The notes beneath the pieces are model-generated. The model had not been told where the DNA came from. It did not search any database and saw nothing but the letters and a program-made list of their open reading frames with translations. The position numbers and the translations under genes were made by a program. Positions 1-64,000 of a stretch of 64,000 nt of DNA are shown one piece after another (the first letter of the stretch is position 1; each line of letters opens with the position of its first letter). Source of the stretch: a virus; the IMG/VR virus record IMGVR_UViG_3300045988_093487; one strand, given 5' to 3'.

Positions 1-1
1 T

Positions 2-1123
2 ATGATTATTAACGGTAAACGCGCATTAGCATACGTAACTAAGATTGATGATATCGAACCGTTACAGGGATATGATAGGGTAGAGTACGCTAGAGTAGGG
101 GGATGGGGAGTCATTGTTTCCAAGGCTGACCAGTTTAAGTCCGGAGATAAGTGTGTTTATTTTGAGGTTGACTCTAAGGTAAATGCAGATGACCCTCGGT
201 TCGCTTTTATGGCAAAGCGTGACTATAAGGTTAAGTGCATTAAGATGTGCAAGGTATACTCTCAGGGCTTGATTATGCCTGTGAGTGCATTTGATGAGTT
301 AAAGGATGCAAATATTGGTGACGATGTTACTGATATTTTAAAGGTTCGCTATTCTGTCGAAGAGGATAACGCTCGTAAGTCGGATGTGGCTGAAAAGAAA
401 TTGACTTTCTTCGAGCGTATCAAGAATTTCTTTACTGGCAAGAAGGTAACTAATCCTCGCAAGTTCCCTACTAAGTTTGAGTACGTAAAGAAGTCGGACG
501 AAGAGCGTGTTGAGAATATGCCATTTATTTTGAAGGACAAAGAGCCTTGGATTAAGACCCAGAAGATTGATGGAACTTCTTCTACTTATATCATGGAAAA
601 GAAACCGTTTGGCCGTTGGGAATATTATGTATGTTCTCGCAATGTGCGTCAGCTTGACCGTAATCAGTTCACTTGGCACAATAAGGGCGGTAACGCTGAA
701 TCTAATGTGTACTGGGATATGAACGACAAGTATCATATTGATGAGTTCTTGAAGCGTTACATCAAGGATAATAACCTAAAGTATGCGGCATTGCAGGGTG
801 AAACCGCTGGCCCTAATCTTCAGGGTAATCCTCACAAGTATGGTGAAGTATGTTTCTTTGGTTACAATTTGATTCGTTCTGACGTTGGGCGTATCAATTC
901 TTTGGATGCAAAGAAGATTTGTAATGCTAATGGAATTGATTGGGTTCCTATCGCAGATGAGCATTATATCTTACCCGATGATATGGAGACTTTAAAGCTG
1001 GATGCTGATGGTGAGTGTATTGTTGGCACTGGCTTGCGTGAAGGTTGGGTTTATCGTAGTCTTGACGGTCAGCGCTCTTTTAAGAATGTTAGCCGTAAGT
1101 ATATGATGAAGCATGACGAATAA
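2..1123 (+). CDS. ATP-dependent RNA ligase (Rnl-like nucleotidyltransferase)
   Basis: KxDG adenylation motif (KTQKIDGTSSTY) after an N-terminal domain; ORF starts at window edge; sits in an RNA-repair neighbourhood. Confidence 0.55.
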   Translation: MIINGKRALAYVTKIDDIEPLQGYDRVEYARVGGWGVIVSKADQFKSGDKCVYFEVDSKVNADDPRFAFMAKRDYKVKCIKMCKVYSQGLIMPVSAFDELKDANIGDDVTDILKVRYSVEEDNARKSDVAEKKLTFFERIKNFFTGKKVTNPRKFPTKFEYVKKSDEERVENMPFILKDKEPWIKTQKIDGTSSTYIMEKKPFGRWEYYVCSRNVRQLDRNQFTWHNKGGNAESNVYWDMNDKYHIDEFLKRYIKDNNLKYAALQGETAGPNLQGNPHKYGEVCFFGYNLIRSDVGRINSLDAKKICNANGIDWVPIADEHYILPDDMETLKLDADGECIVGTGLREGWVYRSLDGQRSFKNVSRKYMMKHDE

Positions 1124-1137
1124 TCTAAAATAAGGAG

Positions 1138-1185
1138 AAACGCCGATACTGTCTTTAATGTGAAGAAAAGTCGGCGTTATTTATT
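1138..1185 (+). terminator. rho-independent terminator
   Basis: hairpin aacgccga...tcggcgtt followed by atttatt. Confidence 0.5.
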
Positions 1186-1187
1186 AA

Positions 1188-1415
1188 ATGGCATATTATA
1201 CCTACGAGCAGTTGGTAAATAAGATAAATAATGGCGAAGTAATTTATTTCGTTAATGCTGAATGCGATATTACAGAGTTTTCTTTTGATGGTCATTATAA
1301 AATGACAATATCAAATCTAATGAAAGTTATTTTTAACAAAGAATTAACCGAAGAAGAATTTAATGAACGCTTCACATATTATGTGAGACATTTCAAGATT
1401 GGCGGTAAAAAATGA
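1188..1415 (+). CDS. hypothetical protein
   Basis: 75 aa ORF with ATGA overlap to next gene. Confidence 0.4.
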   Translation: MAYYTYEQLVNKINNGEVIYFVNAECDITEFSFDGHYKMTISNLMKVIFNKELTEEEFNERFTYYVRHFKIGGKK

Positions 1416-1780
1416 ATAATGAAAAGTGTATGAATTGTGGAACTACAGTTGATGTTGAAGGTGTTGATATTTTGCCGCTTAAATATGGCAGTAGGTTTGA
1501 TGGTTGGGGGACGAGAGTTTTTCTCTGTAAGAAATGCTTGAGCGCTAGTCCATTTACTTCTATTGTTGCGGTAACAAACAAGGAACTTTCTGAGAGCAGT
1601 GATGCAACAGACGAAGATTTGCTTGAGTATAAGAATGAAGATGATATGTTTGATTACATCGAGTCCTTATCTCTTGAAAGTCAGGAAAAATTTTTTAACA
1701 GTAACGCTTACGGCGAGTTCTATACAAAACTGTCACCGGCTGTATGGTTGATGGCAGAAAGGAGTAGGGTGAATGGCTAA
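1412..1780 (+). CDS. hypothetical zinc-ribbon protein
   Basis: CxxC...CxxC pairs (CMNCG, CKKC) and an acidic C-terminus. Confidence 0.45.
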   Translation: MNNEKCMNCGTTVDVEGVDILPLKYGSRFDGWGTRVFLCKKCLSASPFTSIVAVTNKELSESSDATDEDLLEYKNEDDMFDYIESLSLESQEKFFNSNAYGEFYTKLSPAVWLMAERSRVNG

Positions 1781-2615
1781 TTATCAGAAAATCTTAGAGA
1801 GATTAAATCGTAGAAAAGACTATATCGAGCTAAATAGAAAATGCAAGGTCGTATTTGTCGGCCTATTTGGTAGTCAGAATTATGGACTTGATGATAACGA
1901 TTCTGACATTGATTGTGTTGTTGTTACAATGCCATCACTCGATGATTTAATTAGTGGTAAAACTGATGTAAAGACACTAACTCAATCAGAGTTCTCATCT
2001 GATTCTTCCGATGATGGTCAGGTAAAGTTGATGGATATTCGTGATTTTGCAAAACAGTTGGCAAAGGGCAGTTTTGTTAATCTTGAGGCGTTATTCTCTG
2101 ATTATGTCATTGTGGATGACTCTTTTAGAGATTTTTATAATGTTAGAAATAAAATTTACGATAGATATATCTGGCATTACCAGAACGCTGTATATGGTGC
2201 TATTCACCATATCTTAAACTACTACGAGATGAACGCTTGCGCTAACGAAGAAAATAAACAGTCAAAGCGTATGTATGAAGCGTTGCGTCTGAAGAATCTT
2301 TATAATCAACTTACGGATAAGAGTGACGTAGAGTCAAATTCGCGTCCAGAATTTTATATTGCCAATTTATCTGAAAGATGTTCTATCGGGAATGTAAAGT
2401 GCGGTGTTCTTGATAGTGCACAGTTTTTTGATAATGTAAAAGATATTGAAGCGCCTAGCACAAAAGAACCAAAGGTAGCGGAGTCTTTGTGTGGATTTAA
2501 CATTCAGATTTTGGCAAATCTTACCATTAAGAATAGTATAACTGGTAATTTGTACAGAAATAATTATGCTGCGAGTTCTGTAAGTTGTGCAAAAACATCA
2601 TACACAACCGCTTGA
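1773..2615 (+). CDS. Pol-beta superfamily nucleotidyltransferase
   Basis: GS-x9-DxD motif (GLFGSQNYGLDDNDSDID) typical of minimal nucleotidyltransferases. Confidence 0.5.
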   Translation: MANYQKILERLNRRKDYIELNRKCKVVFVGLFGSQNYGLDDNDSDIDCVVVTMPSLDDLISGKTDVKTLTQSEFSSDSSDDGQVKLMDIRDFAKQLAKGSFVNLEALFSDYVIVDDSFRDFYNVRNKIYDRYIWHYQNAVYGAIHHILNYYEMNACANEENKQSKRMYEALRLKNLYNQLTDKSDVESNSRPEFYIANLSERCSIGNVKCGVLDSAQFFDNVKDIEAPSTKEPKVAESLCGFNIQILANLTIKNSITGNLYRNNYAASSVSCAKTSYTTA

Positions 2616-2640
2616 CAAAGCTAGAAAGTTTTGATATAAT
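2612..2640 (+). promoter_or_regulatory. sigma70-like promoter (TTGACA, 17 bp spacer, TATAAT)
   Basis: cttgacaaagctagaaagttttgatataat. Confidence 0.55.
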
Positions 2641-2663
2641 AACTACAGAAACGGAGAGATAGG

Positions 2664-6046: not shown

Positions 6047-6952
6047 ATGCAGGAGTTTGTTATGTTGGTTGGACTTCCGGCAAGCGGAAAGTCTACCGTA
6101 GCGAATGAGTATATGGGAAAGGGGTATCTCATCTTTAGTTCTGATGCGATTCGCAAGGAACTTTTTGGTGACGAAAATGACCAGACTGACAATAATCTGG
6201 TATTTAATACTCTGCATAATCGCATTCGTACTGCAATGAAAGATGGTTTTAGTGTTGTATATGATGCAACGAATATCAATGCTAAACGGCGTGAAGGATT
6301 CTTACGCGAGATAGCGAAGGTAAACTGTCATAAGCATTGCGTCTTTATGGCTACTCCGTATTCCGTCTGCGTTATGCGCAATCAGAAGCGGGAGCGGAAA
6401 GTCCCCATGTCTGCTATGGAGCGTATGCGTAAGGGAATTGATATCCCGTACTACTTCGAGGGGTGGGACGAAATCACTGTTCGGCGTGTTAAGTTGGTAG
6501 CTCCGTATGAACCGTTTGACCTTGTTGACAGCCTTCTGAATTACAATCAGGAAAATCCGCATCACGAATTTACGCTTGGCGCACACATGAAAGAGGCGTG
6601 GCGTTACGCAGTAAACGAGGAATACGATATGTATGTTCAGTGGGCTGCTCTTGTCCATGATATTGGTAAACCGGCCACTAAGACGTTTACTAAAATGAAT
6701 GGAACAACTGATGGAAGTGCACATTATTACAGTCATCAGAATGTTGGTGCGTATGATTCTTTGTTCTTGAACTATCCGAAAGAAATTACGGACAAAGATA
6801 AACTGCATATTGCAGTTCTTATCAACTACCACATGATTCCCTATACATTTGGCAAGGGTAATATCGGAAAAGATAAGATGCGTGAACGTCTTGGAGACGA
6901 AATCTATAACGAGGTTATGCAAGTGCATAACTGTGATGTAAACGCACATTAA
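6047..6952 (+). CDS. polynucleotide kinase (P-loop) fused to HD-domain phosphohydrolase (Pnkp-like)
   Basis: GLPASGKST...DATN resembles T4 Pnk kinase; C-terminal H...HD...D (HHEF...LVHDIGKP). Confidence 0.6.
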   Translation: MQEFVMLVGLPASGKSTVANEYMGKGYLIFSSDAIRKELFGDENDQTDNNLVFNTLHNRIRTAMKDGFSVVYDATNINAKRREGFLREIAKVNCHKHCVFMATPYSVCVMRNQKRERKVPMSAMERMRKGIDIPYYFEGWDEITVRRVKLVAPYEPFDLVDSLLNYNQENPHHEFTLGAHMKEAWRYAVNEEYDMYVQWAALVHDIGKPATKTFTKMNGTTDGSAHYYSHQNVGAYDSLFLNYPKEITDKDKLHIAVLINYHMIPYTFGKGNIGKDKMRERLGDEIYNEVMQVHNCDVNAH

Positions 6953-9273: not shown

Positions 9274-10773
9274 ATGGCAAATTTTGCAAATGCAGTTCGT
9301 GAATCTGCACGAATGACTACTACCGCAAATGGAGCAAAGTGCTACAATACCACTGGTAGCAAGATGCTTGACCTGTTCTCTACCGCTGGTGGTATGCGTA
9401 CTCGAATCAACGATGTTCGCGATGCGTTCTCTGCGGCATGGAACGAGAATCCCGAGCTGGCAATTAAGCTGGCTTTCTATTGTCGTGACGTGAGAGGTGG
9501 ACAGGGTGAACGTGACGTTGCACGTGAGATGCTTCGTTGGGTTGCGGAATATCATCCCTCTACCATGCGTAAGAATTTGAAGTTCTTACCTGAGTATGGT
9601 CGATGGGACGATATTTACGTCTTTGTCGGCACTAAGGTCGAGAATGACGTATGGCAGATGGTTCGTGAACAGTTTGCCGAGGACATCAAGAATGTCAATT
9701 CTGGCAAGTCCTGTTCTCTGATGGCTAAGTGGCTGAAGTCCGTCAACACCTCTTCTAAGAAGTCTGTTGAACTTGGTCGTTTGACTGCTCGTAAGCTGGG
9801 GCTGTCTTATATGCAGTATCAGAAAACTCTGGCTAAACTGCGTAAGTACATTAACGTGACCGAGGTTAATATGTCTGCAAACAAGTGGACTGATATTAAC
9901 TACGAGGCCGTCCCTTCTAAGGCAATGACCAACTATCGTAGCGCATTCGCTCGTCACGACCACGAAGGATTTACCGACTATATCAACGCTGTTAAGGCTG
10001 GAGAAAAGACTATTAAATCTAACACTCTGTATCCTTATGACCTTGTGCATCGGTACATGGGCGGTGGTGGCATGGTTTCCTATCGTTCCGGTTACTACAA
10101 CTGCGGTGGTCTGGCAGACAAGGAAGATGCTGTTGTTGAAGCACAGTGGAGGGCACTGCCCAACTACATTGATGGAAACCATAACGTGATGGTTATGGCA
10201 GATACATCCGGTTCTATGCGCGGTCAGCCCATTGAGTCTGCGCTTGGCCTTGCAATGTATTTTGCAGAGCGCAATAGCGGCCCTTATAAGAATCTGTTTA
10301 TGACCTTTAGTACCAATCCTTGTTATGTCACTCTGGATGAACAGAGTATGCTTGGCAATCTGAAGAAGGCCGCAAAAGCTGACTGGATGGGTTCTACCAA
10401 CCTTGAAGCTGCCTTTGCTAAGATTCTCAAGACTGCGACTGACAACCACCTGACTGATGACGAGCTGCCCAAGGCACTTGTTATCATCTCGGATATGCAG
10501 TTCAATAAGTCGTTGATTCAGGGAGACAACTACTTCGACTCTATGAAGAATATGTATGCCGCACATGGTTATACGCTTCCCCATGTCGTGTTCTGGTGCG
10601 TAAATGCTTGGGCTGGTTCTACTCACCACAATAACTATAACGACTATGTTACTGCATTTAGCGGTAATGCCGCAAGCACTTTCCGTGATGTTCTCGGAAC
10701 TATCGGTTATAATGCTTACGAGGCTATGCTGAAGGTTCTGAATGGTGAGCGTTATGCGCAGATTCATGCCTGA
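9274..10773 (+). CDS. vWA-domain protein with TROVE/DUF2828-like N-terminal region
   Basis: MIDAS MADTSGSMRG in the C-terminal half; large N-terminal domain; family assignment from memory, not verified. Confidence 0.5.
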   Translation: MANFANAVRESARMTTTANGAKCYNTTGSKMLDLFSTAGGMRTRINDVRDAFSAAWNENPELAIKLAFYCRDVRGGQGERDVAREMLRWVAEYHPSTMRKNLKFLPEYGRWDDIYVFVGTKVENDVWQMVREQFAEDIKNVNSGKSCSLMAKWLKSVNTSSKKSVELGRLTARKLGLSYMQYQKTLAKLRKYINVTEVNMSANKWTDINYEAVPSKAMTNYRSAFARHDHEGFTDYINAVKAGEKTIKSNTLYPYDLVHRYMGGGGMVSYRSGYYNCGGLADKEDAVVEAQWRALPNYIDGNHNVMVMADTSGSMRGQPIESALGLAMYFAERNSGPYKNLFMTFSTNPCYVTLDEQSMLGNLKKAAKADWMGSTNLEAAFAKILKTATDNHLTDDELPKALVIISDMQFNKSLIQGDNYFDSMKNMYAAHGYTLPHVVFWCVNAWAGSTHHNNYNDYVTAFSGNAASTFRDVLGTIGYNAYEAMLKVLNGERYAQIHA

Positions 10774-12384: not shown

Positions 12385-12412
12385 TGCAGGGTGTATGCCC
12401 TGCTTTTATATG
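12385..12412 (+). terminator. rho-independent terminator
   Basis: gcagggtgtatgccctgc hairpin plus ttttat. Confidence 0.55.
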
Positions 12413-12506
12413 GGGTATTAGTCTAACTGGATAAAACATCACTCTCCTAAAGTGAATTTCTCCGTTCGAGTCGGGGATGCCCCACCAAAATTTTTCTTAA
12501 AACCAC

Positions 12507-12535
12507 TTGACAAATCGCAAAAAGTATGATAGAAT
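12507..12535 (+). promoter_or_regulatory. conserved phage promoter
   Basis: aaaaccacTTGACA, 17 bp spacer, TAGAAT, then tataGGTGTTCCAAGGGGAAC leader hairpin. Confidence 0.6.
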
Positions 12536-12573
12536 ATAGGTGTTCCAAGGGGAACAGAAAGAAGGTATATTAC

Positions 12574-12786
12574 ATGAAATGTGACGCTGTAAAAGTACAC
12601 GAGTCGATTCCTATGACACCGAAGCGTCTTTATGAGTGGGCTGTTGCAAACGGTGTTGAAGATTGTCAGATGTATTTTCCGGCAGACGAGTTTATGACCG
12701 ATGTTGACTTGACAATGGATTGTATGCACAAAGAATATCGTGGTTTTGGTAAGAACAAGGAAATGGTAGTTAATATCTGTGGGTAA
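12574..12786 (+). CDS. hypothetical protein
   Basis: ATG downstream of the promoter and leader; 70 aa. Confidence 0.4.
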   Translation: MKCDAVKVHESIPMTPKRLYEWAVANGVEDCQMYFPADEFMTDVDLTMDCMHKEYRGFGKNKEMVVNICG

Positions 12787-13087
12787 TTGTACGATGGTTT
12801 TTGTATATGAACTGAAGTACGCTGATAAACGCAAATTAGTTCCAGTCACAGAGAGTCCGAAGACGAGGACAATTGCTACGGTGATTAACAAAGTTACTGG
12901 AAACGATGTTAAGCGTTTGTATAATCGCCTGAAGCGAAGTGGCAATATGCCACAGATGGAGCATCTAAAAGATGGGAACTACCGTATTATGTATATGGCA
13001 CTGCCTAATGGGTTGAAGTTTGACCCATTCTATAAAGGTGGAACATATTACAGAGGAAGGAGCGTATTTGACCGTGATGACACTTGA
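12779..13087 (+). CDS. hypothetical protein
   Basis: 102 aa ORF overlapping its neighbours. Confidence 0.3.
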   Translation: MGNCTMVFVYELKYADKRKLVPVTESPKTRTIATVINKVTGNDVKRLYNRLKRSGNMPQMEHLKDGNYRIMYMALPNGLKFDPFYKGGTYYRGRSVFDRDDT

Positions 13088-13862
13088 TGATAGAATGAAA
13101 ACTTATTATGAGGGTGCATATCGTGTTTATCTGACGCGGCGTATGCCAGTCATTATCCGAATCGACTCTCGTGCTGGGCACACCTTCACAAAGAATCTGA
13201 AAAAGCCTTTTGATGCAGTTTTCACTGCAACTATGCAGGATACAATGAAGTATCTGTGTGAAAACATTCAGGGCTGTGTAATTGGTTATACGCAGTCTGA
13301 TGAAATTACTTTGTGCCTTGTTGATTATGACAAGCTGGAAACCGATGCTTGGTTTGGTTATAATCTAAACAAGCTGGTAAGCCTTAGTGCATCAATGGCT
13401 ACGTTGGCGTTTAATAAGTATTTTGAACGTAATGCCAATAGAACCCTCACCAAGATGGCATTGTCCTCTGGTGTGAATAAGTTTGAAATTGACGCTTACT
13501 CTGCTACATTGGCAAAGTGTAAAGAAAAGGGTTTGTGCTTCGATTCTCGCGCCTTTAATATCCCGAAGGAAGAGGCATGTAACTGTTTCTTATGGAGACA
13601 GCTTGACGCTTCTCGAAACAGTATTCAGGCGGTCGGTCAGGCAAACTTCTCGCATACTGTTCTGAATGGCAAGAGTACGTCTGAAATTCAGGATATGTTG
13701 ATGACCGAAAAAGGCATCAACTGGAACGACCTTGCGACTGAATTAAAGCGTGGCTCTTGCTGTGTACGAGATGGTAATGGCTGGTCTATTGACCGCGAGA
13801 TTCCTAAGTTTACCGGCGAAGGCCGTGACTATATTGATAAGCTGGTTTTTGTTGGAGAATAA
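13077..13862 (+). CDS. Thg1-like tRNA-His guanylyltransferase / 3'-5' polymerase
   Basis: IRIDSRAGHTFTK...KPFD...GYTQSDEITL matches the Thg1 catalytic core (RxDGRxFHxF, KPxD, YGQSDE); start codon uncertain (13020, 13077 or 13095). Confidence 0.65.
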   Translation: MTLDDRMKTYYEGAYRVYLTRRMPVIIRIDSRAGHTFTKNLKKPFDAVFTATMQDTMKYLCENIQGCVIGYTQSDEITLCLVDYDKLETDAWFGYNLNKLVSLSASMATLAFNKYFERNANRTLTKMALSSGVNKFEIDAYSATLAKCKEKGLCFDSRAFNIPKEEACNCFLWRQLDASRNSIQAVGQANFSHTVLNGKSTSEIQDMLMTEKGINWNDLATELKRGSCCVRDGNGWSIDREIPKFTGEGRDYIDKLVFVGE

Positions 13863-13863
13863 A

Positions 13864-14064
13864 ATGCCTAAATATAGTTTTGATTTTAGGTACGCATACG
13901 GAAGTTGGACATTATGTAATTTGCGTTATGAGCATTATGACATTGATGCCCCTTCTGAAAAGGAAGCATTTAAAATCGCAGAAAAACAGTTCAATGAAAC
14001 GCATAAATCTGCAATATGCGACCTCTATCGTGATAGTGATGGATGGCATAAACTTCTTTGGTGA
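13864..14064 (+). CDS. hypothetical protein
   Basis: 66 aa ORF starting ATGCCTAAATAT. Confidence 0.35.
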   Translation: MPKYSFDFRYAYGSWTLCNLRYEHYDIDAPSEKEAFKIAEKQFNETHKSAICDLYRDSDGWHKLLW

Positions 14065-14339
14065 GTATGAACATTAACATTCCGTTTTCTTGCGGCGATG
14101 TTGTGTACGCTGTAAGACCTAAAAATATGTATAACAAGGAAGCCTATATTTATAAAGGCATTGTTATTTATATTAAAGTCGAGGTTGACCGTGACAATAA
14201 AGCTAAAATTATGGCGCACGTCCGTGACCTCGATGAGACTTTAAGCGTACCTAACATCATCTATCAGAGCAGTGACAGTATCTACGCCACTCTGGATGAA
14301 GCTAGGTCAGCTAATCCAGATGTTCTGATAAAAATTTAA
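14058..14339 (+). CDS. hypothetical protein
   Basis: 93 aa ORF. Confidence 0.4.
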   Translation: MVSMNINIPFSCGDVVYAVRPKNMYNKEAYIYKGIVIYIKVEVDRDNKAKIMAHVRDLDETLSVPNIIYQSSDSIYATLDEARSANPDVLIKI

Positions 14340-14357
14340 AAAATTTCCCAAAACCCC

Positions 14358-14386
14358 TTGACAAATGATAAAAAATCTGGTATAAT
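14358..14386 (+). promoter_or_regulatory. conserved phage promoter driving the tRNA operon
   Basis: aaaaccccTTGACA, 17 bp spacer, TATAAT; leader hairpin GAGGAACgaaaGTTCCTC. Confidence 0.65.
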
Positions 14387-14421
14387 AAGGGTGTCAAGAG
14401 GAACGAAAGTTCCTCAAATAT

Positions 14422-14494
14422 ACGTCGGTAGTTTAACGGTAAAACAATGGCCTCCAAAGCCAGAAGATGATGGGTTCAAATCCCTCCCGGCGTG
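14422..14494 (+). tRNA. tRNA-Trp(CCA)
   Basis: acceptor acgtcgg/ccggcgt; anticodon loop ctCCAaa; GGGTTCAAATCCC T-arm (T-stem weakly paired); no encoded CCA. Confidence 0.55.
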
Positions 14495-14501
14495 TTTATA
14501 T

Positions 14502-14576
14502 GCGCTTATCGTTCAATGGATAGGACAAAACTCTTCTAAAGTTTTTATGTGGGTTCAATTCCTACTAGGCGTACCA
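14502..14576 (+). tRNA. tRNA-Arg(TCT)
   Basis: acceptor gcgctta/taggcgt; D-stem gttc/ggac; anticodon stem aaact/agttt with loop ctTCTaa; T-arm gtggg-ttcaatt-cctac; 3' CCA encoded. Confidence 0.7.
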
Positions 14577-14578
14577 CA

Positions 14579-14662
14579 GACGCATACAGCAATCCATAAA
14601 TTTTAATGGTTTAAAAAGAATGCTTAAAACAATCTTTCACGGTTCGATTCCGTTCTGCGTCT
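14579..14662 (+). tRNA. atypical tRNA-like gene (possible Leu-TAA, non-canonical D region)
   Basis: acceptor agacgca/tgcgtct (7/7) and cggTTCGATTccg T-arm, but about 14 extra nt around the D-arm; candidate anticodon arm gaatg-cttaaaa-caatc. Confidence 0.3.
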
Positions 14663-14739
14663 AATTTTTAGTTATTCTTCATCTTTATCTGAACTCGATA
14701 GACACGAACAGCAACACTTTCTTTGTTCGCGCCACTAAT

Positions 14740-14812
14740 TGCGAATATAGTTTAGATGGTTAGAACGCCACACCAAAATGTGGAGACGTGGGTTCGAGTC
14801 CCACTTATAGTT
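14740..14812 (+). tRNA. tRNA-like element / probable tRNA pseudogene
   Basis: canonical D-arm (tagtttagatggttagaac) and T-arm (gtgggTTCGAGTcccac) but a 6-nt anticodon loop (ccaaaa) and a poorly paired acceptor. Confidence 0.3.
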
Positions 14813-14823
14813 GTGTCTAATAT

Positions 14824-14896
14824 GCCCGGTTAGTCAAGTTGGCTAAGACGAGTGACTCTCAATCACTAGGCGGCAGTTCAATCCTGCCACCGGGTA
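14824..14896 (+). tRNA. tRNA-Glu(CTC)
   Basis: acceptor gcccggt/accgggt; anticodon stem agtga/tcact with loop ctCTCaa; T-arm ggcag-ttcaatc-ctgcc. Confidence 0.6.
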
Positions 14897-14901
14897 CTTT
14901 A

Positions 14902-14929
14902 TGGTCGAGTAGCTCAGTTGGTTAGAGCA
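14902..14929 (+). pseudogene. 5' fragment of a tRNA gene (acceptor + D-arm only)
   Basis: ggtcgagtagctcagttggttagagcag matches the 5' third of the tRNA-Lys and tRNA-Ile genes in this cluster, then diverges; lies next to the endonuclease gene. Confidence 0.45.
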
Positions 14930-14944
14930 GTAAATAAATGAGGT

Positions 14945-15703: not shown

Positions 15704-15843
15704 TTTTGTTAGCTAATTACAAAAACAATATCCTACTGACATAATAATACCCATTTTTCGGTTTGGATAACAGCGCATAGGTATAAAAGTCTGTGATTAT
15801 TGGATAGGCTAACAATGACTGCTGGAAAGACAGCGTTTTATAT

Positions 15844-15920
15844 GCGGCAGTAGTTCAACTGGATAGAACAATCGGCTACGAACCGATAGGTTGCGAGTTC
15901 AAGTCTTGTCTGCCGTACCA
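15844..15920 (+). tRNA. tRNA-Arg(ACG)
   Basis: acceptor gcggcag/ctgccgt; anticodon stem atcgg/ccgat with loop ctACGaa; T-arm gcgag-ttcaagt-cttgt; CCA encoded. Confidence 0.7.
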
Positions 15921-16042
15921 GATAAATGAATCTTAAATTACGCTGGACAAAGGATAGCCTTTTATGGGAGACTGTTACGACAGTAACCCTGATTATCGGT
16001 GATGATGCTAACTCATGAGAGTGCGTAAGCCGACATTTATAT

Positions 16043-16118: not shown

Positions 16119-16122
16119 AGAA

Positions 16123-55510: not shown

Positions 55511-56140
55511 TTATCTAACAAACATTGCTTTCCAAGTATTCATACCTACAATTCCATCGGCAGTTAGATTATGTGCTCTCTGGAATTTTTTTACCTCATC
55601 TTCAGTGTTCTTTCCAAATTGACCATCAATAGGTATACCAAGTTTCTTTTGAACGAATTTTACAGCACTTGCTTTACCAACATTCGTTCCGCGTTTGATA
55701 ATTGGCATTAGGTCAACTCTATAATATTCGTATACGCCAGCTCTTGCACAAAGCCAAAATGTTTCTCTTGGTCTGGTATCAACATGGATAAAGTTCGTGT
55801 TACCGTAGTAGTACACTCCAACACCATTCGTGATAGTTTGTGCGTAATATGCCAATTCAACAGCGGAAACACCAGCAATCTGGATATCTGCCGCCATACC
55901 TTTTACATGATAGGAACCAGCAGAACCACCGACCCTGCGGTTATGCTCTGGGGTACGATATGCAGAATTTATTACAACCGGCTTACCAAAATAGTCACGG
56001 ATTTTTTGTAGAACTTCAACGAGAGCTGTATCAATAAGAACGGAGTCAGAACCATCCTTACAGGCGAACTCTTTTACAGTAAAATTTGTAGATAATTTTG
56101 TATTACCGTGTTCCTTTAGACTGTATGTTTTAACAGCCAT
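55511..56140 (-). CDS. endolysin: M15 peptidase (VanY-like) with C-terminal peptidoglycan-binding domain
   Basis: SAYRTPEHNRRVGGSAGSYHVKGMAADIQI (M15 zinc peptidase); C-terminal FQRAHNLTADGIVGMNTWKAM (PG_binding_1-like). Confidence 0.7.
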   Translation of the reverse strand: MAVKTYSLKEHGNTKLSTNFTVKEFACKDGSDSVLIDTALVEVLQKIRDYFGKPVVINSAYRTPEHNRRVGGSAGSYHVKGMAADIQIAGVSAVELAYYAQTITNGVGVYYYGNTNFIHVDTRPRETFWLCARAGVYEYYRVDLMPIIKRGTNVGKASAVKFVQKKLGIPIDGQFGKNTEDEVKKFQRAHNLTADGIVGMNTWKAMFVR

Positions 56141-56583
56141 TATACCATCCCTTTCTTAGATAAATAATATTTAGGTTTTTCTTCGTGGAACAAGAAGTAT
56201 CTTAAATAATCGTCAACGATAATAGCAACGATGCATAAGAAAAACCACAGAATAGTAAACGGTAAGCAAATCTAACCAAGAATATTAAATGGTAGATTTG
56301 AATAATCCCAAATGTGAAGACCCAGAAATAGATTTAGTATAATTCCTGCGATAAACTCACAACACGTTACAACAAGTGCACCAATTATAGACTGTTTCCA
56401 AATTTCCATTTTCCAAGGTAGATAATTATTTAATCCACCAATGACAACAAAACAAAAACCTCCAAGAACGCCCATTGTCCAATGAGTATGTCCGCGACAA
56501 AGCATCTCTATTCCGCAATATGCAAAACCACCAATTAAAAACAAGATTATAATTTTAAGTGATTCTTTTGCAAGATTTCTCAT
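56141..56583 (-). CDS. membrane protein with in-frame TAG; readthrough form ends in a TAATG overlap with the endolysin start
   Basis: 103 codons, TAG at 56272-56274, then 43 more in-frame codons including a TM helix (ICLPFTILWFFLCIVAIIV) ending at TAA 56140-56142, which overlaps the endolysin ATG. Confidence 0.55.
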
Positions 56584-56592
56584 ACAATCACC

Positions 56593-57228
56593 TTATTCAT
56601 ATTTAATCTCAATATTGTCAACTTCATTTTTAGATTTGCATTCTTTAATTTTTACTTCAATATCTTGTTGCTTAGATACTATTGGTTTTACATATTTAAC
56701 AATAGCGAGAGACAGCGCCGCAAGATTTTCGTAAGTCCACGCCCTACATCTATCTCCTGTTGTATTCCATGTAAGTTCCATAGGTTCCCCGATTGTAGAT
56801 GAAATTTGATAGGCGGCAAGGTTGCTTGTCAATAGCGCTTGTTTTTCTTCTGTAACAGAATAATATTCTCCATCAATCCATTGGAGTGGATGAGACGCAA
56901 GATACTCTTTAAGGTCGGTTTTGGATTTTGCGATTTTAGTATTTTTAATTTCGTTTAGTTTTGCTTCTAGCTCTTCTGCTGTATATAAGATGTATTTTTG
57001 AATTGGGATTTCTTCATCCCAAGCTCCTTTTGCTTCTACCGCTTCAACATCAACAATTTTTTTTACATCTTTGCCGCCATTTGGATATTCGGCAATGGTT
57101 TCATAATGAAATTTTTCTTTTACTTCATCAACTTTGTCATGGTGGATTGTTTTAATGTCATTTATAAGATATCCAAGTTCAAGATTAGGGTTGAAAATTT
57201 CATTCCCAGTTTCATCAATTATTTCCAT
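56593..57228 (-). CDS. hypothetical protein (structural?)
   Basis: 211 aa ORF. Confidence 0.45.
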   Translation of the reverse strand: MEIIDETGNEIFNPNLELGYLINDIKTIHHDKVDEVKEKFHYETIAEYPNGGKDVKKIVDVEAVEAKGAWDEEIPIQKYILYTAEELEAKLNEIKNTKIAKSKTDLKEYLASHPLQWIDGEYYSVTEEKQALLTSNLAAYQISSTIGEPMELTWNTTGDRCRAWTYENLAALSLAIVKYVKPIVSKQQDIEVKIKECKSKNEVDNIEIKYE

Positions 57229-57256
57229 TTTCTTCTCCTTTCTTCGGTTTTCCGGT

Positions 57257-58054
57257 TTACGCTACCACATGCCCAGTGTCGTCCACCGTCGCGTCCTGCG
57301 GCAGAATTATACAGGGGCGGATACCAGCCAAGTCGTAGCAGGCGAAAGTACTCCGGTCGCCAACGGAGTCGATAGTAATGGCATATCCACTGTCGGCACA
57401 GAATGGAGAGCGGAGCCACCAGTATGTGGCAGAGCCGTCGAGGAATGCGATACGCTTAGAATCCGAGCTATCATCCGCACAGCCCTTGAAATAGGCCAGC
57501 TCCGCACCTTCGCCGCTCGGCATATAGGGGAAGTTGAAACTCGTTTCGGTCGCACTGAGCAGGAAAATCTTCGCAGACAGGCCGTTCGAGCCGCTGGTGA
57601 CAATCGTAGACGTGTTGCCGCCTTTGCGGTACGGGAGCTTTACCTGCTTGATGGCGTTCTTGATGTTCGGCTCGAGAAGGTTTAGGAATGTGCTGTTCAG
57701 GTAGGAGTGGATGGTGCTGTTGGCGTAGTCGTTAGTGCCCGAACTACGCCACTGGCTGTTTTCGTAGATGTCTTTCATCAGCAGCCACGTGCCATTGCAG
57801 CTTGCGTCATAAATACCAGCATCCGGAATGCCCTGATGCACCACCAGCCAGTCGTAGTCCTTGCCGCTCACGGCGATTTTGACGGTCTTACCCACTTCGT
57901 AGCCGCCAAGCAGCGTGCCGCGCTGATACCACAATCTAGCAACCCCATTCACACCAATGTATGCCTTCTGGACTTGACGTGCTTTACCGTCTACTCCGAT
58001 ATACATCTTGGAGATGCTTTTCGCCACCCCCCCAATTCCGATATATGCACTCAT
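57257..58054 (-). CDS. putative receptor-binding protein with DUF1566/C-type-lectin-like C-terminus; candidate DGR target
   Basis: C-terminal ATYWWLRSPFCADSGYAITIDSVGDRSTFACYDLAGIRPCIILP resembles the DUF1566 ending (YW..S...A...G...VRP); the whole gene is far more GC-rich than the phage; GC-driven overlapping ORFs in other frames are artefacts. Confidence 0.5.
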   Translation of the reverse strand: MSAYIGIGGVAKSISKMYIGVDGKARQVQKAYIGVNGVARLWYQRGTLLGGYEVGKTVKIAVSGKDYDWLVVHQGIPDAGIYDASCNGTWLLMKDIYENSQWRSSGTNDYANSTIHSYLNSTFLNLLEPNIKNAIKQVKLPYRKGGNTSTIVTSGSNGLSAKIFLLSATETSFNFPYMPSGEGAELAYFKGCADDSSDSKRIAFLDGSATYWWLRSPFCADSGYAITIDSVGDRSTFACYDLAGIRPCIILPQDATVDDTGHVVA

Positions 58055-58070
58055 ATTGATTACCCCCTGT

Positions 58071-58730
58071 TTATCCTGAAATTGCAGTCGTCAATTTCCC
58101 TGCAATCACCTGTATCTGAGCATTCGCAGCAGTCAAAATATTTTCTACGTTTGTCTGCAAGTCAGAAGGCAACGTATCACCATACCGAATTGCAGAAATA
58201 GTTTCAATTTTATCCTCTCGTTTAATCCATTGACGTAATGCATTACAATATGTCGTTTGCTGAGTAACAAAACCTTTTGCGGCGATGTATAGTTCCATTA
58301 TATCAGAAGCACTATACATTTCGCATGGTTCACCATCTGCATGGTATGGGTATTCAGTCGCTCCAAGAGTGATTGCAGAAAAGATTCCGTCAATATTAGT
58401 TTGGTCATTTGCTGTTAAACTAAAATGTTTCTTACCAACACTTAGCTCGACATCAACACCGCTGTATATTACTTGTTCACAAATAGACGACATTTCGTCT
58501 AGCTTACTCTGACGTACTTCGTCAATGGTTGGCTCTACAGATTCTGGTTCTAGCGTAGGTTCCGGGACTTCTCCATATTCGTAGACAGTGTAGTATCCAT
58601 TATCCATGGAAATGCCCCAATACTTTTCGCCGGGTTTAGCAGAACCATTATGTTCATCCACCGCACTCTCAATGGAAGAATAATCCGCATTTTTAATCTC
58701 AACCTTATAGTTTGGGATAATTTTATCCAT
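58071..58730 (-). CDS. hypothetical protein (structural?)
   Basis: 219 aa ORF with RBS aaggagg. Confidence 0.45.
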   Translation of the reverse strand: MDKIIPNYKVEIKNADYSSIESAVDEHNGSAKPGEKYWGISMDNGYYTVYEYGEVPEPTLEPESVEPTIDEVRQSKLDEMSSICEQVIYSGVDVELSVGKKHFSLTANDQTNIDGIFSAITLGATEYPYHADGEPCEMYSASDIMELYIAAKGFVTQQTTYCNALRQWIKREDKIETISAIRYGDTLPSDLQTNVENILTAANAQIQVIAGKLTTAISG

Positions 58731-58745
58731 AACTCAAACACCTCC

Positions 58746-58979
58746 TTACGAATAAACGAACAAGACTGTATCGGTCTCCAAAGGGCTTCCGGCTCCGGGG
58801 TCAGATGTCTATGCCTTGAATTTAAAATTATTTACATTATCAATAGATTCTACATTGATTGTTCCATCGCTTTCTACATTTATTCCCTTACCTATTTTAA
58901 CCCCGCCAATATCCTCTTTGGTTGCAGGGGAAAGGGCCATATATCCACCTATAGACGTTGGGCCATAAGCCATATTCAT
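58746..58979 (-). CDS. small tail-fibre-like protein with in-frame TAG
   Basis: MNMAYGPTSIGGYMALSPATKEDIGGVKIGKGINVESDGTINVE shares the GGVKVGSGLTVDADGTLS motif with the large fibre; TAG at 58809-58811, then 20 codons ending at a TAA that overlaps the next gene's RBS (TAAGGAGG). Confidence 0.4.
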
Positions 58980-59104
58980 TCCTCCTTTTATTATATTTAA
59001 TTTTTATTATAATGTAATTTAAACAAATCATAAAATAATCATCGAAAAACAATAAGACCGCGTTTTGATGGGTGCTACAAATGGGAGTTATGGAAACGTA
59101 TAAA

Positions 59105-62100
59105 TTAACCAACTCTTTTCCAGATGTGCACATAGTAGGCGGCGGGCTGCACGGTATAGCTGCGACCGTAGATTGAGTTCGAGCGGGAAGCATCAAAGTA
59201 AACATCATACGTCGAACCTGACGTACCACTGTAGCCACCCCAAGAAGTATTGATTTCTACGAATTTTAAAGCTCCCGATGATTTCAAAGACGCTTTTGAA
59301 CCACGGAATGGGGAGGACTCTGCGGTTGCTTCTATTAAGCTGCCCGTGATGTTCGGCAGTCCGGCCTCCACCGTGCTTCCCGCTGTGTAGCCTGTGCCAG
59401 CACCCATCAGCACGCGGTTAAATGCAATCTCCTGCCATGTACCGCCGAACAGTGCGGCGGGACTGGTAGTGCTGACTGTTTGAAAAATACTGCCCACCGG
59501 GTAGGCAGACAGGCCGCTGTCCGCAGAAAGTGTTCCGTCCGCATCGACCGTCAGACCGCTGCCCACCTTCACGCCGCCCAGCGTGGTGGCGGTGGCAGCA
59601 GGGAGGGTGTATTCCTGAGCATCAGCACTCAATACACCTTTATTAGAAACTTTTAGCCCCTCTCCTACAATGATGCCACCTAGCTCTGTCGTCGTTGCAG
59701 GGGGCAGCATTGCTCCACCAATAGGGGTTTGACCAAAACTCATAAGGATATCTTCTCGGATAATGTAATAAAAAGCTTTAATAGATTCCGTTGGGATGTT
59801 ACGAGCACGGATTCTCAAATAATTAGGTAATGATTCTGTTGAAGTAAAATAACATTTTTTAGCGACTACATTACTATCTGGTGCAATGACAAGTGCAACA
59901 CAATCACTTCCTGTAATTCCTGTAGCTACAATGTCAATATAATTCGGATATGCAGAGTTACTATCTTGGTTCCATCCAGTTGTGGGAATCGTAATAGATA
60001 CAAGATTTATTTTTTCTGCTGCCTCATAACCAAGTGCTCCGTCAACGTTGTCTTTTATTAAACTAATCAAGCCTTTATTACCAACTGTAATATTGTCTCC
60101 AATTTGTACAATACCGGCATTAGTTCTCGTAGCATAATTAGTGTCTGTAACAACGCTTGTTTTAGAATAAGGAGTGATAGCTTGGTCAACAGAGGGGGCA
60201 TTTGCGGAGTATTTTAATACATATCCCCAATTGTCTTTTTTAGCTATAGATACATTGATAATAGAATTAAAGAATGTAGAGTCCGTGTTTATCCATAGTT
60301 CTGCATTACTCTGACCGTTTCCACCCGATGTTGGGATTAAATAGAAAAACTCTTTTTTTGTTGAATTGTTTTCGATATCTACATCGGAAGATTTTAGCTT
60401 ATCATCATACATAATATAAGAGAAAATGTAGGCTGTAGACAAATCGTTACTATTTGTTTGTGCTAAGTCATGGATGAATAATGTAATATTCTTACTATAA
60501 GCGACAGAGTTATTTTCTGTTGAAACAATTGTAGGACAGTTAATCTCAATTTTTATTAAATCACCGTCTGATGTGTTAGAAATGTTTCCTACATGAAACC
60601 ATGTTTGTCCGGTTACAGTAGACGCAGGGATGGTTTCTGTTAATATATATCCTTTTGGAGCAGCGCCGTCAATTGTGCTCGTCTCATTATTGCCCTTTGT
60701 GATGATGATTTTATCCCCTGTTGGACGCAAATCTTTGATGTACGTCGCATCTATTTGTTGACCAATAGAGTCATTTGTTGCGCTGTCTGCGCTAGTCGCA
60801 GTGTCAGCGTTACCAGTTAGATTACCAACAAACTTAGCATCACCGCTCATAGTAATGTCGCCAGTCATTGTACCGCCACTAAGTTTCAACGTGCCAACTA
60901 ATGCGTTTGCTACATTAGTCTCGCTTGTTTTAGCATTAGTTTCACTAATCTTCGCTTTATCTTCAGATGCCTTTGCTGCGTTTTGACTTACAAGAGCAGC
61001 GGCGGCAGATGCTGCGGCATCATTAGCAGATTGCTGTGAATTATCCGCATAGCTACTTGCGTTCTGTTCTGAAGCAGCAGCGTTAGTCTCGCTTGTTTTA
61101 GCATTAGTTTCACTAATCTTCGCTTTATCTTCAGATGCCTTTGCTGCGTTTTGACTTACAAGAGCAGCGGCGGCAGATGCTGCGGCATCATTAGCAGATT
61201 GCTGTGAATTATCCGCATAGCTACTTGCGTTCTGTTCTGAAGCAGCAGCGTTAGTCTCGCTTGTTTTAGCATTAGTTTCACTAATCTTCGCTTTATCTTC
61301 AGATGCCTTTGCTGCGTTTTGACTTGCAAGAGCAGCGGCGGCAGATGCAGCGGCATCATCAGCAGATTGCTGTGAATTATCCGCATAGCTACTTGCGTTC
61401 TGTTCTGAAGCAGTTGCGTTTATTTCTGATTGCTTTGCCGCCTTTTCTGATGCCAATGCTTTGGTTTCACTGGTTTTAGCAGCATTTTGAGAATTTAAAG
61501 AGGCTTGTGCCGAATTTGCAGAATCACTTGCAGAACTAGCCGAATCATCAGCGCTTGTCTTAGATGCGTTTTCTGAAGCTTTCGCGTTTTGTTCCGAAAT
61601 CTTAGCATTAGCTTCTGATGTAGCAGATGCAGTCTATGAAGCCTTTGCTTTATTTGCACTATCCGCTGCATTTGTCTCCGATGTCGCGGCATTCTGCTCA
61701 GACTGTTTAGCATTAGCTTCAGAAGTAGCGGCGGCTTGTGCAGATTTTTGAGCAGCAATCTGATAATTATGTGCATTTATTTCAGATTGTCTAATACTCT
61801 CAGCGGAAGCAGCGGCGGCATCTTTATATGCGTTTGCGTTAGCTTCAGAAGCGGCTGCATTACTAGCTGATACGGCTGCTGCATTTTTATAACTTTCTGC
61901 ATTGACTTCAGAAGCCTTTGCGTTGTCTTCAGACTTCTTAGCGGCCTCGGCAGCATTCATAGCGTCATCGTGGTAGCTACCAATTATTTTTTGGAATGTT
62001 GCAATAGCATCTGTCCAAACATCTGGATTTTTTGATGCAGAACCAACATCGAGCAGTCCTTTTTCGATATTCAAAACCTATGGTTTTGTATGTAAAATAT

Positions 62101-62461
62101 ACTAACCTTCTTCTGCCGCATCAGTAATGCGCCCATCATATATAGAAATATCATAAGTCAAAGTACCACTCGCGGCAGTTGCCTTTTGACTTAAATACCA
62201 AGGGAATATAATATATCTTTTTTCTCCATCAGTCTTAACTTCGCGAGTGTCGGAAAAGAAAGTATCAAATTGACCAAGAGCATTAACATACCGAATAGCT
62301 AAGATTTTATCTGTAATATCAACATCATCAATAACAGCCGGAATCTTAAACTTCAGAATACGCGAGTCGTTATCGTCAACAACAGCGATATTTTCCGTTG
62401 CGCATGGTACAATATCTCTATTTCTAATTTCAAAAATATATGAACTCAAATATTTCACCAT
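59105..62461 (-). CDS. tail fibre protein (about 1119 codons) containing three in-frame TAG codons
   Basis: ORFs 62102-62461, 61634-62074 and 59105-61456 are all in one frame, separated only by TAG codons at 62102-62104, 62078-62080 and 61634-61636; the Ala/Ser-rich repeat sequence continues unbroken across the 61634 TAG; no ATG or usable RBS exists for the internal segments; start ATG 62461 has RBS gaagga. Confidence 0.65.
60915..61420 (-). repeat. three near-identical tandem 168-bp (56-aa) repeats inside the tail fibre gene
   Basis: period 168 bp from ttagtctcgcttg at 60915, 61083 and 61251; encodes ASEQNASSYADNSQQSANDAAASAAAALVSQNAAKASEDKAKISETNAKTSETNAA three times. Confidence 0.8.
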
Positions 62462-62477
62462 CCTTCAAAAATATAAT

Positions 62478-62510
62478 TAGCATCCTCTAAACGAGGATGC
62501 CAACAGTTTA
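62478..62510 (-). terminator. rho-independent terminator (minus strand)
   Basis: minus-strand hairpin gcatcctcgtttagaggatgc followed by taattatattttt. Confidence 0.6.
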
Positions 62511-62515
62511 CTCTT

Positions 62516-62663
62516 AGATAAACTTTTCACCAGTAATATATTCATACTCTTCTGGAGTAATCCATCCCTTAGTGGTCACATTGTAAACCATCTGCTTAGT
62601 CCAGAATCCAGAATCGTAGTAATATTTAGCCTTCTTGCCATGAACGGACAATTCCATATCAGT
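62516..62663 (-). CDS. XkdX-like small phage protein
   Basis: 48 aa MTDMELSVHGKKAKYYYDSGFWTKQMVYNVTTKGWITPEEYEYITGEKFI with the XkdX-like ITxEEY..ITGE ending; family assignment from memory. Confidence 0.4.
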
Positions 62664-62671
62664 CATATATT

Positions 62672-62837
62672 AGTCCTCCATTCCTACTTCATCAGAAGCA
62701 ACTGCGTCAGTTGGCAAATCAATATCAGACATCACGGCAATATACTCAATCAGTGATTGCTGATTGCTAATCTGTGCATTACGATATTCTGCCATTTTCT
62801 CCTCATGAGGAGACATGATTGCCTTTTCAAATACCAT
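62672..62837 (-). CDS. hypothetical small protein
   Basis: 55 aa ORF between the reverse transcriptase and the XkdX-like gene. Confidence 0.3.
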
Positions 62838-62841
62838 AATT

Positions 62842-63888
62842 CTACCTCCATAATTCGTAATAGAATTGATTCATCCTTTGTATTAGCTTATATGAATTAC
62901 CATGTTCTGCATGAGCAACCCAACAGCTATAACATTGGTCTATCTTTTCTTTAGTTCTACGACCTTTTACAACAAGTTTAACCATTTTGCGCAATTTACG
63001 CTTTTCGTTCTTAACATTATCACCAAGAATTGACATAACAACTTTGCCAGTTTCAGTAAGCCTGAACTTAAATCCCAAGAAAGGAATACCCTGACCAACT
63101 CTATACAGTTTAGTTTTCTTAGGATGTAGTTCAAGACCAATTTTAGCTAATTCTTCTTGAATCTCGTGCATACACTTAATCAAGTAATTTCTGTCGTGAT
63201 GAATAAGAACAAAATCATCCATATATCTGATATAATACTTAATGTGCATACGTTCTTTAATCTTATGGTCAAGTTTATCCAGAACAGAAATGCCAGCAAT
63301 CTGAACGACTTGGCTACCGGGATTATACCCGGTATCACCGAGATATTGTTCATTTAATATTCTACAGACTCTATCTGCATATTCTGCTGGTAATTTCTCT
63401 CTAAACAAGGCATTTGTTGTATCGTGCCGCATATTATCATAATAGTGTTTAATGTCGCATTGAAGAACCCAAGCATCAAGACCGTTCTTTCTATAGCATC
63501 TTTGCAGATGACATTTTAAACGACCTCTAGCAAAATCAGTTCCTTTTCCTTTTTGACAAGCACAATTATCATAAATAAAACTTCGAGTCATTAACGGATA
63601 CACTATATTGTCATTAAGGCTACGTTGATACACTCTGTCTCTAAAAGCTATGCTTACAGCAATTCTTTCTTTTGGATGAGTGATATGAACCGTCTTAGTC
63701 GGGCGAGGTTGGTATGTTCCGTCTGCTAGTTGCTTTTCCAATTTAAGAACCTGTTCAATTCCATGAATATAGAAATTAGCAACAGATTCTTTCCAGCTAA
63801 CATTTTTCTTACACTTATATAAAGAATCAAGTAGGTGCTCGAAGTCTAGGACATTTACTACTTGATTCGATTCCTAATTGTTACTCAT
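62842..63888 (-). CDS. reverse transcriptase, DGR-type, with in-frame TAG at codon 5
   Basis: GTYQP, RIAVSIAFRDRVYQRSL, QCDIKHYYDNM (motif A), GYNPGSQVVQIAGI (SQ variant of the QGxxxSP motif, the DGR hallmark), YIRYMDDFVLI (YxDD); the conserved N-terminus LDFEHLLDSLYKCKK... is reachable only from ATG 63888 through the TAG at 63874-63876; the ORF track starts at an internal TTG; the gene ends with TAG at 62842-62844 and a TGA 5 codons later. Confidence 0.65.
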
Positions 63889-64000
63889 TAAACTTTGACC
63901 CAACAACTAAACTAAGCCGTATATAGGCGTACTGGCTCGAAAGCCAACGCCATCGGCATAGAGTGGTTTAGTTATCTTTTATAATTTTTAAAGCAAGATA

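Follow-up and report, generated by a model that had tools for sequence, protein, structure and literature searches.

The stretch of DNA analyzed here, 64,000 nucleotides (nt) from IMG/VR virus record IMGVR_UViG_3300045988_093487 and hereafter called the window, has a GC content of 39% and carries two gene blocks of opposite direction, the plus-strand genes occupying 1-55134 and the minus-strand genes the remainder from 55182 onward. The plus-strand block is an early/middle replication and nucleotide-metabolism module, and the minus-strand block includes genes for a tail fibre and a reverse transcriptase (RT) of the type found in diversity-generating retroelements (DGR) (Table 1). The window corresponds to approximately 51,876-115,875 of ENA ERZ27250578 contig k119_15915 (115,939 nt), and exact matches to its proteins lie on human-gut contigs of ~81-116 kb. 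Judging from the sequence, the window very probably derives from an SPbeta-like human-gut phage of roughly 116 kb, of which it would hold the early half and the opening 9 kb of the late half, and this phage would read UAG as glutamine (code 15) in its late genes.

Gene sets were obtained by strand-aware greedy open reading frame (ORF) calling, either under the standard code (code 11) or with TAG treated as a sense codon. Whole-window six-frame ORF totals under four stop-codon sets were discarded as uninformative, since freeing any stop codon lengthens random ORFs. Among the 88 standard-code ORFs on the plus strand (1-55150), 55 end in TAA, 31 in TGA and two in TAG. TAG makes up 15.5% of the out-of-frame stop triplets within early genes, and against this background the probability of observing two or fewer TAG ends is 5.6e-5 (6.5e-6 for one or fewer). 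TAG is avoided at gene ends throughout the genome, and the original observation that nearly all genes end in TAA or TGA was borne out. The 13 standard-code ORFs on the minus strand (55150-64000) end in TAA (eight) or TAG (five), and the frame stays open past every one of these five TAGs. A genuine TAG terminator was found in one gene among ~99, where it is backed up by a second stop. This is the gene starting at 39608, for which a TAG end with TGA two codons on had been correctly described. Its TAG (40097-40099) is TAA in seven of eight relatives, which identifies it as a stop position rather than a glutamine site. At the end of another gene (40557-40919), the tandem TAA TAG TTA TGA is present, and its TAA is changed to CAA in one relative.

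Eight in-frame TAGs were found in five genes of the window: three in the tail fibre gene, two in the RT gene, and one each in the genes for a PF06541 membrane protein, a 77-amino-acid (aa) protein and an SLT lytic transglycosylase. In-frame TAA or TGA was not seen in any of them. The 9 kb minus-strand late block holds seven of these TAGs, and the eighth is in the SLT gene, the sole TAG-containing gene on the plus strand. The claim of at least eight internal TAGs therefore holds as a count, once the apparent SLT and RT ends are taken as internal, as the evidence supports, but the sites are not spread genome-wide. Identical in-frame TAGs were found again in independent assemblies, and Pfam domains span or flank them.

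The tail fibre gene, whose product has a Pfam Gp10_C match, forms one frame to TAA when TAG is read through, and an SE-x-NA-K repeat runs unbroken through the TAG at 61634-61636. This codon is CAG in two relatives (L002 and L004), for which the gene calls are 933 and 935 aa. Fibre length varies among relatives. Individual late frames of relatives, 640 to 2136 codons long, contain 2 to 12 TAGs; in the extreme case, 12 TAGs are found in an ORF of 2061 codons. In the PF06541 membrane protein, the Pfam match (residues 37-122) extends across the TAG codon, which is kept in six of six close relatives. The TAG of the 77-aa protein (58809-58811) is shared by the window and relatives L001, L003, L005 and L006 and is CAG (Q) in L002 and L004, and the 20 residues downstream of it are conserved. 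With TAG as sense, the RT gene starts at ATG 63886-63888. Under code 11 its first start would be a TTG lying 44 codons downstream of the codon-5 TAG, with loss of an N-terminus that is conserved among relatives. Near its C-terminus, TAG (62842-62844) is separated from TGA by four codons, in agreement with the description of a TAG shortly before TGA, and in relatives the RT frame extends 9 to 31 codons beyond this TAG.

For the SLT gene, the 60-codon open extension described beyond TAG (18787-18789) was confirmed, as the frame is open to 18972. The extension is conserved, and in a comparison with relative L012, 10 of its 11 substitutions, and 9 of 12 in the SLT body, are third-position changes in the SLT frame. 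This third-position bias past the TAG indicates that the extension is translated in frame and that TAG serves as a sense codon. Other TAGs were left uncounted. The one at 57262-57264, upstream of the gene at 56593-57228, overlaps the preceding gene. Fourteen early ORFs gain a TAG when it is treated as sense; one is SLT, and the other 13 owe it solely to a 5' extension, shorter than 40 codons, that is intergenic or overlaps the upstream gene. A split primase-helicase in relative L013 proved to be caused by a scaffold gap of Ns and involves no TAG.

The identity of the encoded residue was examined by comparison with homologues. Opposite the TAG at 56272-56274, glutamine is present in 120 of 120 uninterrupted PF06541 homologues (56-92% identity), within the motif LGQICLPF. 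Five sites swap TAG with a glutamine codon or residue among relatives. At two of them (61634-61636 and 58809-58811) the alternative is CAG at the DNA level, and the three others are glutamines of the window RT (in GIEQVLK, KIDQCYS and KLIQRMN) that are TAG in IMG/VR relatives. In an all-versus-all comparison of late ORFs from 11 genomes, glutamine stood opposite TAG in 102 site-instances and the next residue in 30, counts that are redundant across close relatives. Read with TAG as glutamine, TAG-spanning sequences are NILGQICLPF, KASQTASATSE, FKFKAQTSDPGAG and YFAEQGKSDYR. Thus, by alignment, TAG is read as glutamine (code 15) and not as leucine (code 16). The proposal that the phage treats TAG as sense accords with the TAG-only interruptions, the alternation with CAG and the invariant glutamine, and when codes 15 and 16 were compared, as had been suggested, glutamine fitted and leucine was without support.

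Table 1. Features of the window, with coordinates, strand and supporting details.
Feature	Position	Strand	Details
Early/middle block	1-55134	+	Pfam: RNA ligase, RlaP-like nucleotidyltransferase, adenylosuccinate synthetase, PNK-like kinase, PhoH, flotillin-like, Thg1-like; 15-gene tRNA array, SLT, D12 methyltransferase, SSB, primase-helicase, PolIII alpha; dUTPase, FolD, UDG, ThyX, CCA-adding enzyme
RNA ligase	2-1123	+	
RlaP-like nucleotidyltransferase	1773-2615	+	
PNK-like AAA_33 kinase	6047-6952	+	
DUF2828/DUF7788 protein	9274-10773	+	
tRNA array	12412-17941	+	13 by ARAGORN, 2 by Rfam only
Thg1-like 3'-5' polymerase	13077-13862	+	
tRNA-like sequence	14741-14812	+	Rfam 43.6 bits; three acceptor-stem mismatches, 6-nt anticodon loop CCAAAA
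Second interrupted tRNA-like gene	16123-16244	+	ARAGORN intron mode only, as Gly(ACC); missed by Rfam
Interrupted tRNA-Ile gene	16414-16529	+	Rfam tRNA, 45.9 bits
SLT lytic transglycosylase, 237 codons	18259-18972	+	Pfam SLT E = 2.8e-13; TAG 18787-18789
Gene with real TAG end	39608-40105	+	TAG 40097-40099, then TTA TGA; next gene ATG at 40102
CCA-adding enzyme	49346-50812	+	
Start of late block	55182-64000	-	Holin-like, M15 endolysin with peptidoglycan-binding domain, PF06541 membrane protein, DUF4376 proteins; DUF6273 protein, tail fibre, XkdX-like protein, DGR-type RT
PF06541 (ABC_trans_CmpB) membrane protein, 147 aa	56140-56583	-	TAG 56272-56274 = codon 104
77-aa protein	58746-58979	-	TAG 58809-58811
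Tail fibre, 1118 codons	59105-62461	-	One frame to TAA; TAGs 62102-62104, 62078-62080, 61634-61636
DGR-type RT	62827-63888	-	RVT_1 E = 4e-17; TAGs 63874-63876 (codon 5) and 62842-62844 (near C-terminus)

Only the late arm, plus SLT, uses TAG as a codon, and the early 55 kb is compatible with the standard code. In the early block, coding coverage hardly changed, from 0.879 under code 11 to 0.891 when TAG was sense, the gain consisting of spurious short 5' extensions and SLT, and no ORFs other than SLT were merged. In the late block, coverage rose from 0.892 to 0.959, 13 ORFs were reduced to 11, and these 11 ended in TAA (ten) or TGA (one). The early-versus-late tabulation that had been proposed gave one in-frame TAG in ~16,200 early codons and seven in 2,807 late codons (Fisher P = 1.1e-5), and the 97 glutamine codons of the late block comprise 55 CAA, 35 CAG and 7 TAG. 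Similarly, in a stitched 49 kb late arm of a relative, 22 of 50 ORFs contained TAG (33 TAGs in 14,675 codons), and coverage increased from 0.842 to 0.890 with TAG as sense. Of the pattern originally noted, TAG avoidance at gene ends stood genome-wide, whereas in-frame TAG use proved to be confined to the late module and SLT. Comparable coding density with no merged ORFs, named at the outset as the result that would speak against recoding, describes the 55 kb early block, and only the late block departs from it.

Several observations weigh against a reassigned UAG, and the tRNA complement is the most direct of them. The 13 tRNAs found by ARAGORN in the window are Arg-CCU, Trp, Arg-UCU, Glu-CUC, Arg-ACG, Leu-AAG, Val, Thr-UGU, Thr-CGU, Lys, Ile-GAU, Ser-GGA and Cys. 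No CUA-anticodon tRNA was detected in the window by ARAGORN (default, relaxed and intron settings) or Rfam (gathering and E-value thresholds), and a custom cloverleaf scan of the window for a CUA loop gave one weak chance match and nothing credible. None was found in any of 94 loci or in loci added later. A second tRNA array in the late arm of relatives encodes Met, Asn, Gln-UUG, Pro, Asp, Ala, Leu-UAG and Ser-UGA, mostly together with Ser (GCU), and it also lacked a CUA tRNA in five IMG/VR and three ENA relatives. For IMG/VR contig 088999 (112,960 nt), the search covered 4,388-55,236 and 89,100-109,882, the middle stretch corresponding by position to the tRNA-free part of the window, and for the window's own genome it covered a further 4.7 kb outside the window. 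Altogether, the lineage carries about 24 tRNAs, zero of them with a CUA anticodon. Furthermore, TAG density in the late block is low (~2.5 per 1000 codons), and code 11 prediction still covers 89% of that block. The tail-fibre TAG at 62078-62080 aligns with alanine or serine in more distant or paralogous proteins. The labels early and late are drawn from gene content and strand, and the timing that they would imply is complicated by TAGs within the YonO-like RNA polymerase gene of relatives, an enzyme that by analogy with SPbeta would be required before late transcription.

It is possible, though we consider it unlikely, that UAG is still a stop codon and is misread by a near-cognate tRNA-Gln of host or phage through a G-U pair at the first codon position. 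Such leaky readthrough may be helped by weakened RF1 in infection, and a CUA tRNA would be unneeded. This explanation is consistent with the absence of a CUA tRNA from the window and the sampled parts of relatives' genomes, with the tRNA-Gln(UUG) that the lineage itself carries in the late arm and with the low density of TAG, as well as with the report that a suppressor tRNA is detectable in only ~40% of published TAG-recoded phages (bioRxiv 10.1101/2021.08.26.457843). However, genes with multiple TAGs, such as the fibre with three or the relative's 2061-codon ORF with 12, would give a negligible yield at 10% readthrough per site. TAG also occupies the position of an invariant, presumably essential glutamine, and its purging from gene ends genome-wide points to strong suppression. 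Because some genes need three readthroughs (up to 12 in relatives) and TAG has been purged from gene ends, efficient suppression in the infected cell is suggested, and a true code-15 state is therefore preferred, with low-efficiency near-cognate readthrough as the main rival.

That the TAGs are real stops under the standard code, the fragments being separate proteins or the remains of decaying genes, appears very improbable. Public gene calls do list fragments of 119, 146 and 727-783 aa, together with a 103-aa PF06541 piece, and a code 11 annotation leaves little of the late block uncovered. However, the interruptions are always TAG and never TAA or TGA, frame and sequence are conserved over them in independent assemblies, and TAG alternates with CAG among relatives. 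In addition, the PF06541 domain spans a TAG, third-position bias persists past the SLT TAG, and code 11 provides the RT with no start that preserves its N-terminus. Just as improbable is a TAG that encodes another residue, namely leucine (code 16), pyrrolysine, tyrosine or tryptophan. Among distant or paralogous proteins, S, A, N or R stands opposite some of the TAGs, but the best-resolved site has glutamine in all 120 homologues, both switches confirmed at the nucleotide level are to CAG, three RT sites alternate between TAG and glutamine, and glutamine is about three times as frequent opposite TAG as any other residue; pyl genes were absent from the Pfam annotation of the window. We give almost no weight to an assembly or sequencing artefact, or to a chimera of two genomes with different codes. 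The mosaicism of the lineage, with early proteins 93-99% identical to IMG/VR relatives and one late protein 54-62% identical, is what a chimera might produce, but at least six independent assemblies from different studies share the window's early-late junction and its TAGs, and GC is similar on the two sides of the strand switch (0.38 vs 0.41-0.43).

How UAG would be decoded was considered in light of the tRNA complement. Published TAG-recoded phages in which no suppressor tRNA is detected are suspected to use non-canonical tRNAs or host manipulation (bioRxiv 10.1101/2021.08.26.457843). The Pfam annotation of the window contained no release factor and no aminoacyl-tRNA synthetase, GlnRS included. 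We offer, as a speculative proposal with a modest chance of being correct, that the SPbeta-like clade decodes UAG as glutamine without a conventional CUA tRNA, using either an RNA that is invisible to tRNA finders or a reprogrammed host tRNA-Gln or RF1. In the former case, the two insertion-bearing tRNA genes (16414-16529 and 16123-16244) and the tRNA repair enzymes of the early block might together make a UAG-reading RNA; in the latter, host tRNA-Gln or RF1 would be reprogrammed by the phage. With ~24 tRNAs and none reading UAG, the lineage could serve as a test case for the ~60% of TAG-recoded phages that have no detectable suppressor.

By analogy with published recoded phages, the early genes, which are free of in-frame TAG except for SLT, would be translated first under the host's standard code. 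Efficient UAG suppression later in infection would then allow synthesis of the full-length tail fibre, the lysis-associated membrane protein, SLT and RT. If full-length late products are made only after suppression, the in-frame TAGs may constitute a timing gate on late and lytic functions. A SPbeta-like, roughly 116 kb lineage of Firmicutes type would thereby join the phages whose early and late programmes are set apart by genetic code. Under code 15, public gene calls are wrong in the late region, where the fibre is broken into three pieces and shortened products are given for the RT, the PF06541 protein and SLT, and a table 15 annotation of the late arm recovers receptor-binding and lysis proteins at full length in a common human-gut lineage. 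The differing TAG/CAG states of relatives, together with conserved early and diverged late proteins, offer a natural series for the gain and loss of TAG sites.

The suggestion that comparable stop-codon recoding occurs in gut phages has published precedent, and in these phages TAG-to-Gln recoding concentrates in structural and lysis genes (bioRxiv 10.1101/2021.08.26.457843; PMC10607447; PMC9523058). Code 15 gut phages include crAss-like, Lak, Garnet, Amethyst, Topaz and some Agate phages (Borges et al., bioRxiv 10.1101/2021.08.26.457843; Peters et al. 2022, PMC9523058). The present phage resembles them in having TAG in structural and lysis genes, replication genes largely in standard code and TAG as glutamine, as well as in its gut source and presumed standard-code host; many of them are also without a detectable suppressor tRNA. 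Unlike them, it belongs to a SPbeta-like lineage of ~116 kb that is lightly recoded (~2.5 TAG/1000 codons) and carries ~24 tRNAs without CUA. A further comparison is provided by phAss-1 and the proposed Phassvirus group, siphovirus-like human-gut phages of 133-138 kb with big tRNA sets (Babkin et al. 2023, PMC10607447). In each of those genomes, 37-41 ORFs, those for tail fibre and holin among them, were described as using TAG-to-Gln, and phAss-1 and two relatives carry two or three tRNA-Sup(CTA) genes (PMC10607447). Like phAss-1, the present phage is a large human-gut phage with many tRNAs, and the TAG-bearing orthologues vary between relatives. In contrast to phAss-1, no suppressor tRNA was found in its lineage.

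When the 9 kb late block was compared by megablast with 50,697 phage records, the only match was a 400 bp DUF6273 segment of Faecalibacterium phage FP_Brigit. The closest matches of the primase-helicase in the phage collection were unannotated human-faecal "Bacteriophage sp." records (35-37% identity). phAss-1, BK046881 and BK025033 were not among the best matches listed for the late-block megablast or the primase-helicase tblastn (20 listed for the latter), and their presence in the collection was not checked.

The lineage was assigned as SPbeta-like because the late arm of relatives encodes proteins with Pfam YonJ_N, YonG_N, YonD_N and YomX_C matches and a YonO-like RNA polymerase with a DFDGD motif and a PF05183 match. 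An XkdX-like gene in the window is a further likeness. The Bacillus phage SPbeta itself uses the standard code, whereas in-frame TAGs are present in these same late genes of the present lineage. The phage thus adds a SPbeta-like lineage to the gut phages known to recode TAG to Gln (code 15). By analogy with SPbeta, a Firmicute is the probable host. A search through bacterial genomes for the host returned a sole match, a 2.6 kb contig in a Bacteroidales metagenome-assembled genome; this contig is probably mis-binned.

Several additional features of the genome were noted. The Thg1-like early-arm protein of the window is 93-99% identical to those of five IMG/VR genomes (L024-L028), and a large late-arm protein of a close relative of the window is 54-62% identical to its counterparts in four of those genomes (L007-L010), a difference that indicates modular exchange between genome halves. 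RNA ligase-bearing contigs from independent assemblies (five of five) begin 18-74 nt upstream of the RNA ligase gene, which suggests a physical genome end or terminal repeat at the left edge of the window (1-70). PolIII alpha appears as two plus-strand ORFs (24799-29344), one of 552 aa that carries PHP and DNA_pol3_alpha domains and another of 511 aa. A 338-aa ORF (26783-27799, plus strand) lies between them and is possibly an inserted gene of homing-endonuclease type that splits PolIII alpha. The D12-class methyltransferase (34437-34952, plus strand) is 171 aa in the window and four relatives and 251 aa in four others; the shorter form looks like a truncated allele ending in TAA, with no TAG effect. 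Within the tail fibre gene, three tandem 168-nt (56-aa) repeats with 97-100% identity lie at 60915-61418 on the minus strand. The DGR was traced at 62827-64000 (minus strand) of the window and at L001 2882-4826. Its template repeat straddles the right end of the window and matches (85% over 122 nt) the 3' terminus of a DUF6273 gene of 402 aa that lies beyond the window. A template-repeat match was absent from the DUF6273 gene inside the window (57257-58054).

The early block encodes a full tRNA repair and maturation kit, which is unusually complete (RNA ligase, RlaP-like nucleotidyltransferase, PNK-like kinase, Thg1-like polymerase and CCA-adding enzyme; Table 1), and the two interrupted tRNA genes found alongside these enzymes may reflect unusual tRNA processing. 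In the tRNA-Ile gene, a 40-nt insertion separates tRNA positions 29 and 30 on the 5' side of the anticodon stem, and deleting it (16443-16482) leaves a perfect 76-nt tRNA-Ile(UAU) with an encoded CCA end. The insertion is invariant in eight relatives and includes both a 7-bp hairpin and 9 nt with complementarity to tRNA positions 4-12; it is an intron-like element, unusual in a phage tRNA. This gene was rejected as a hidden suppressor, as removal of the insert yields tRNA-Ile(UAU). An alternative pairing that places CUA in a 7-nt loop was also rejected for its bad tRNA geometry, having no variable loop and five nucleotides at position 26. The second interrupted gene has a perfect acceptor stem, D arm, T arm and 5-bp anticodon stem, with 56 nt in place of the 7-nt loop (a 49-nt insert) and a 7-bp hairpin within. 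It was likewise rejected as a hidden suppressor, giving at best a Gly(GCC)-like loop with A33. The tRNA-like sequence at 14741-14812 sits 0.9 kb past the end of the Thg1-like gene, whose product is of the tRNA 5'-end repair type. In the second array of relatives, a YrlA-like Y RNA adjoins tRNA-Gln(UUG) (L108 7204-7304). Finally, the motif ACAGCAACAC or ACAGCTACAC is repeated in inter-tRNA spacers and in the tRNA-Ile insertion (window 14577-14740 and 16443-16482; L108 7171-7304 and 7701-7800), and it could be a processing or promoter signal.

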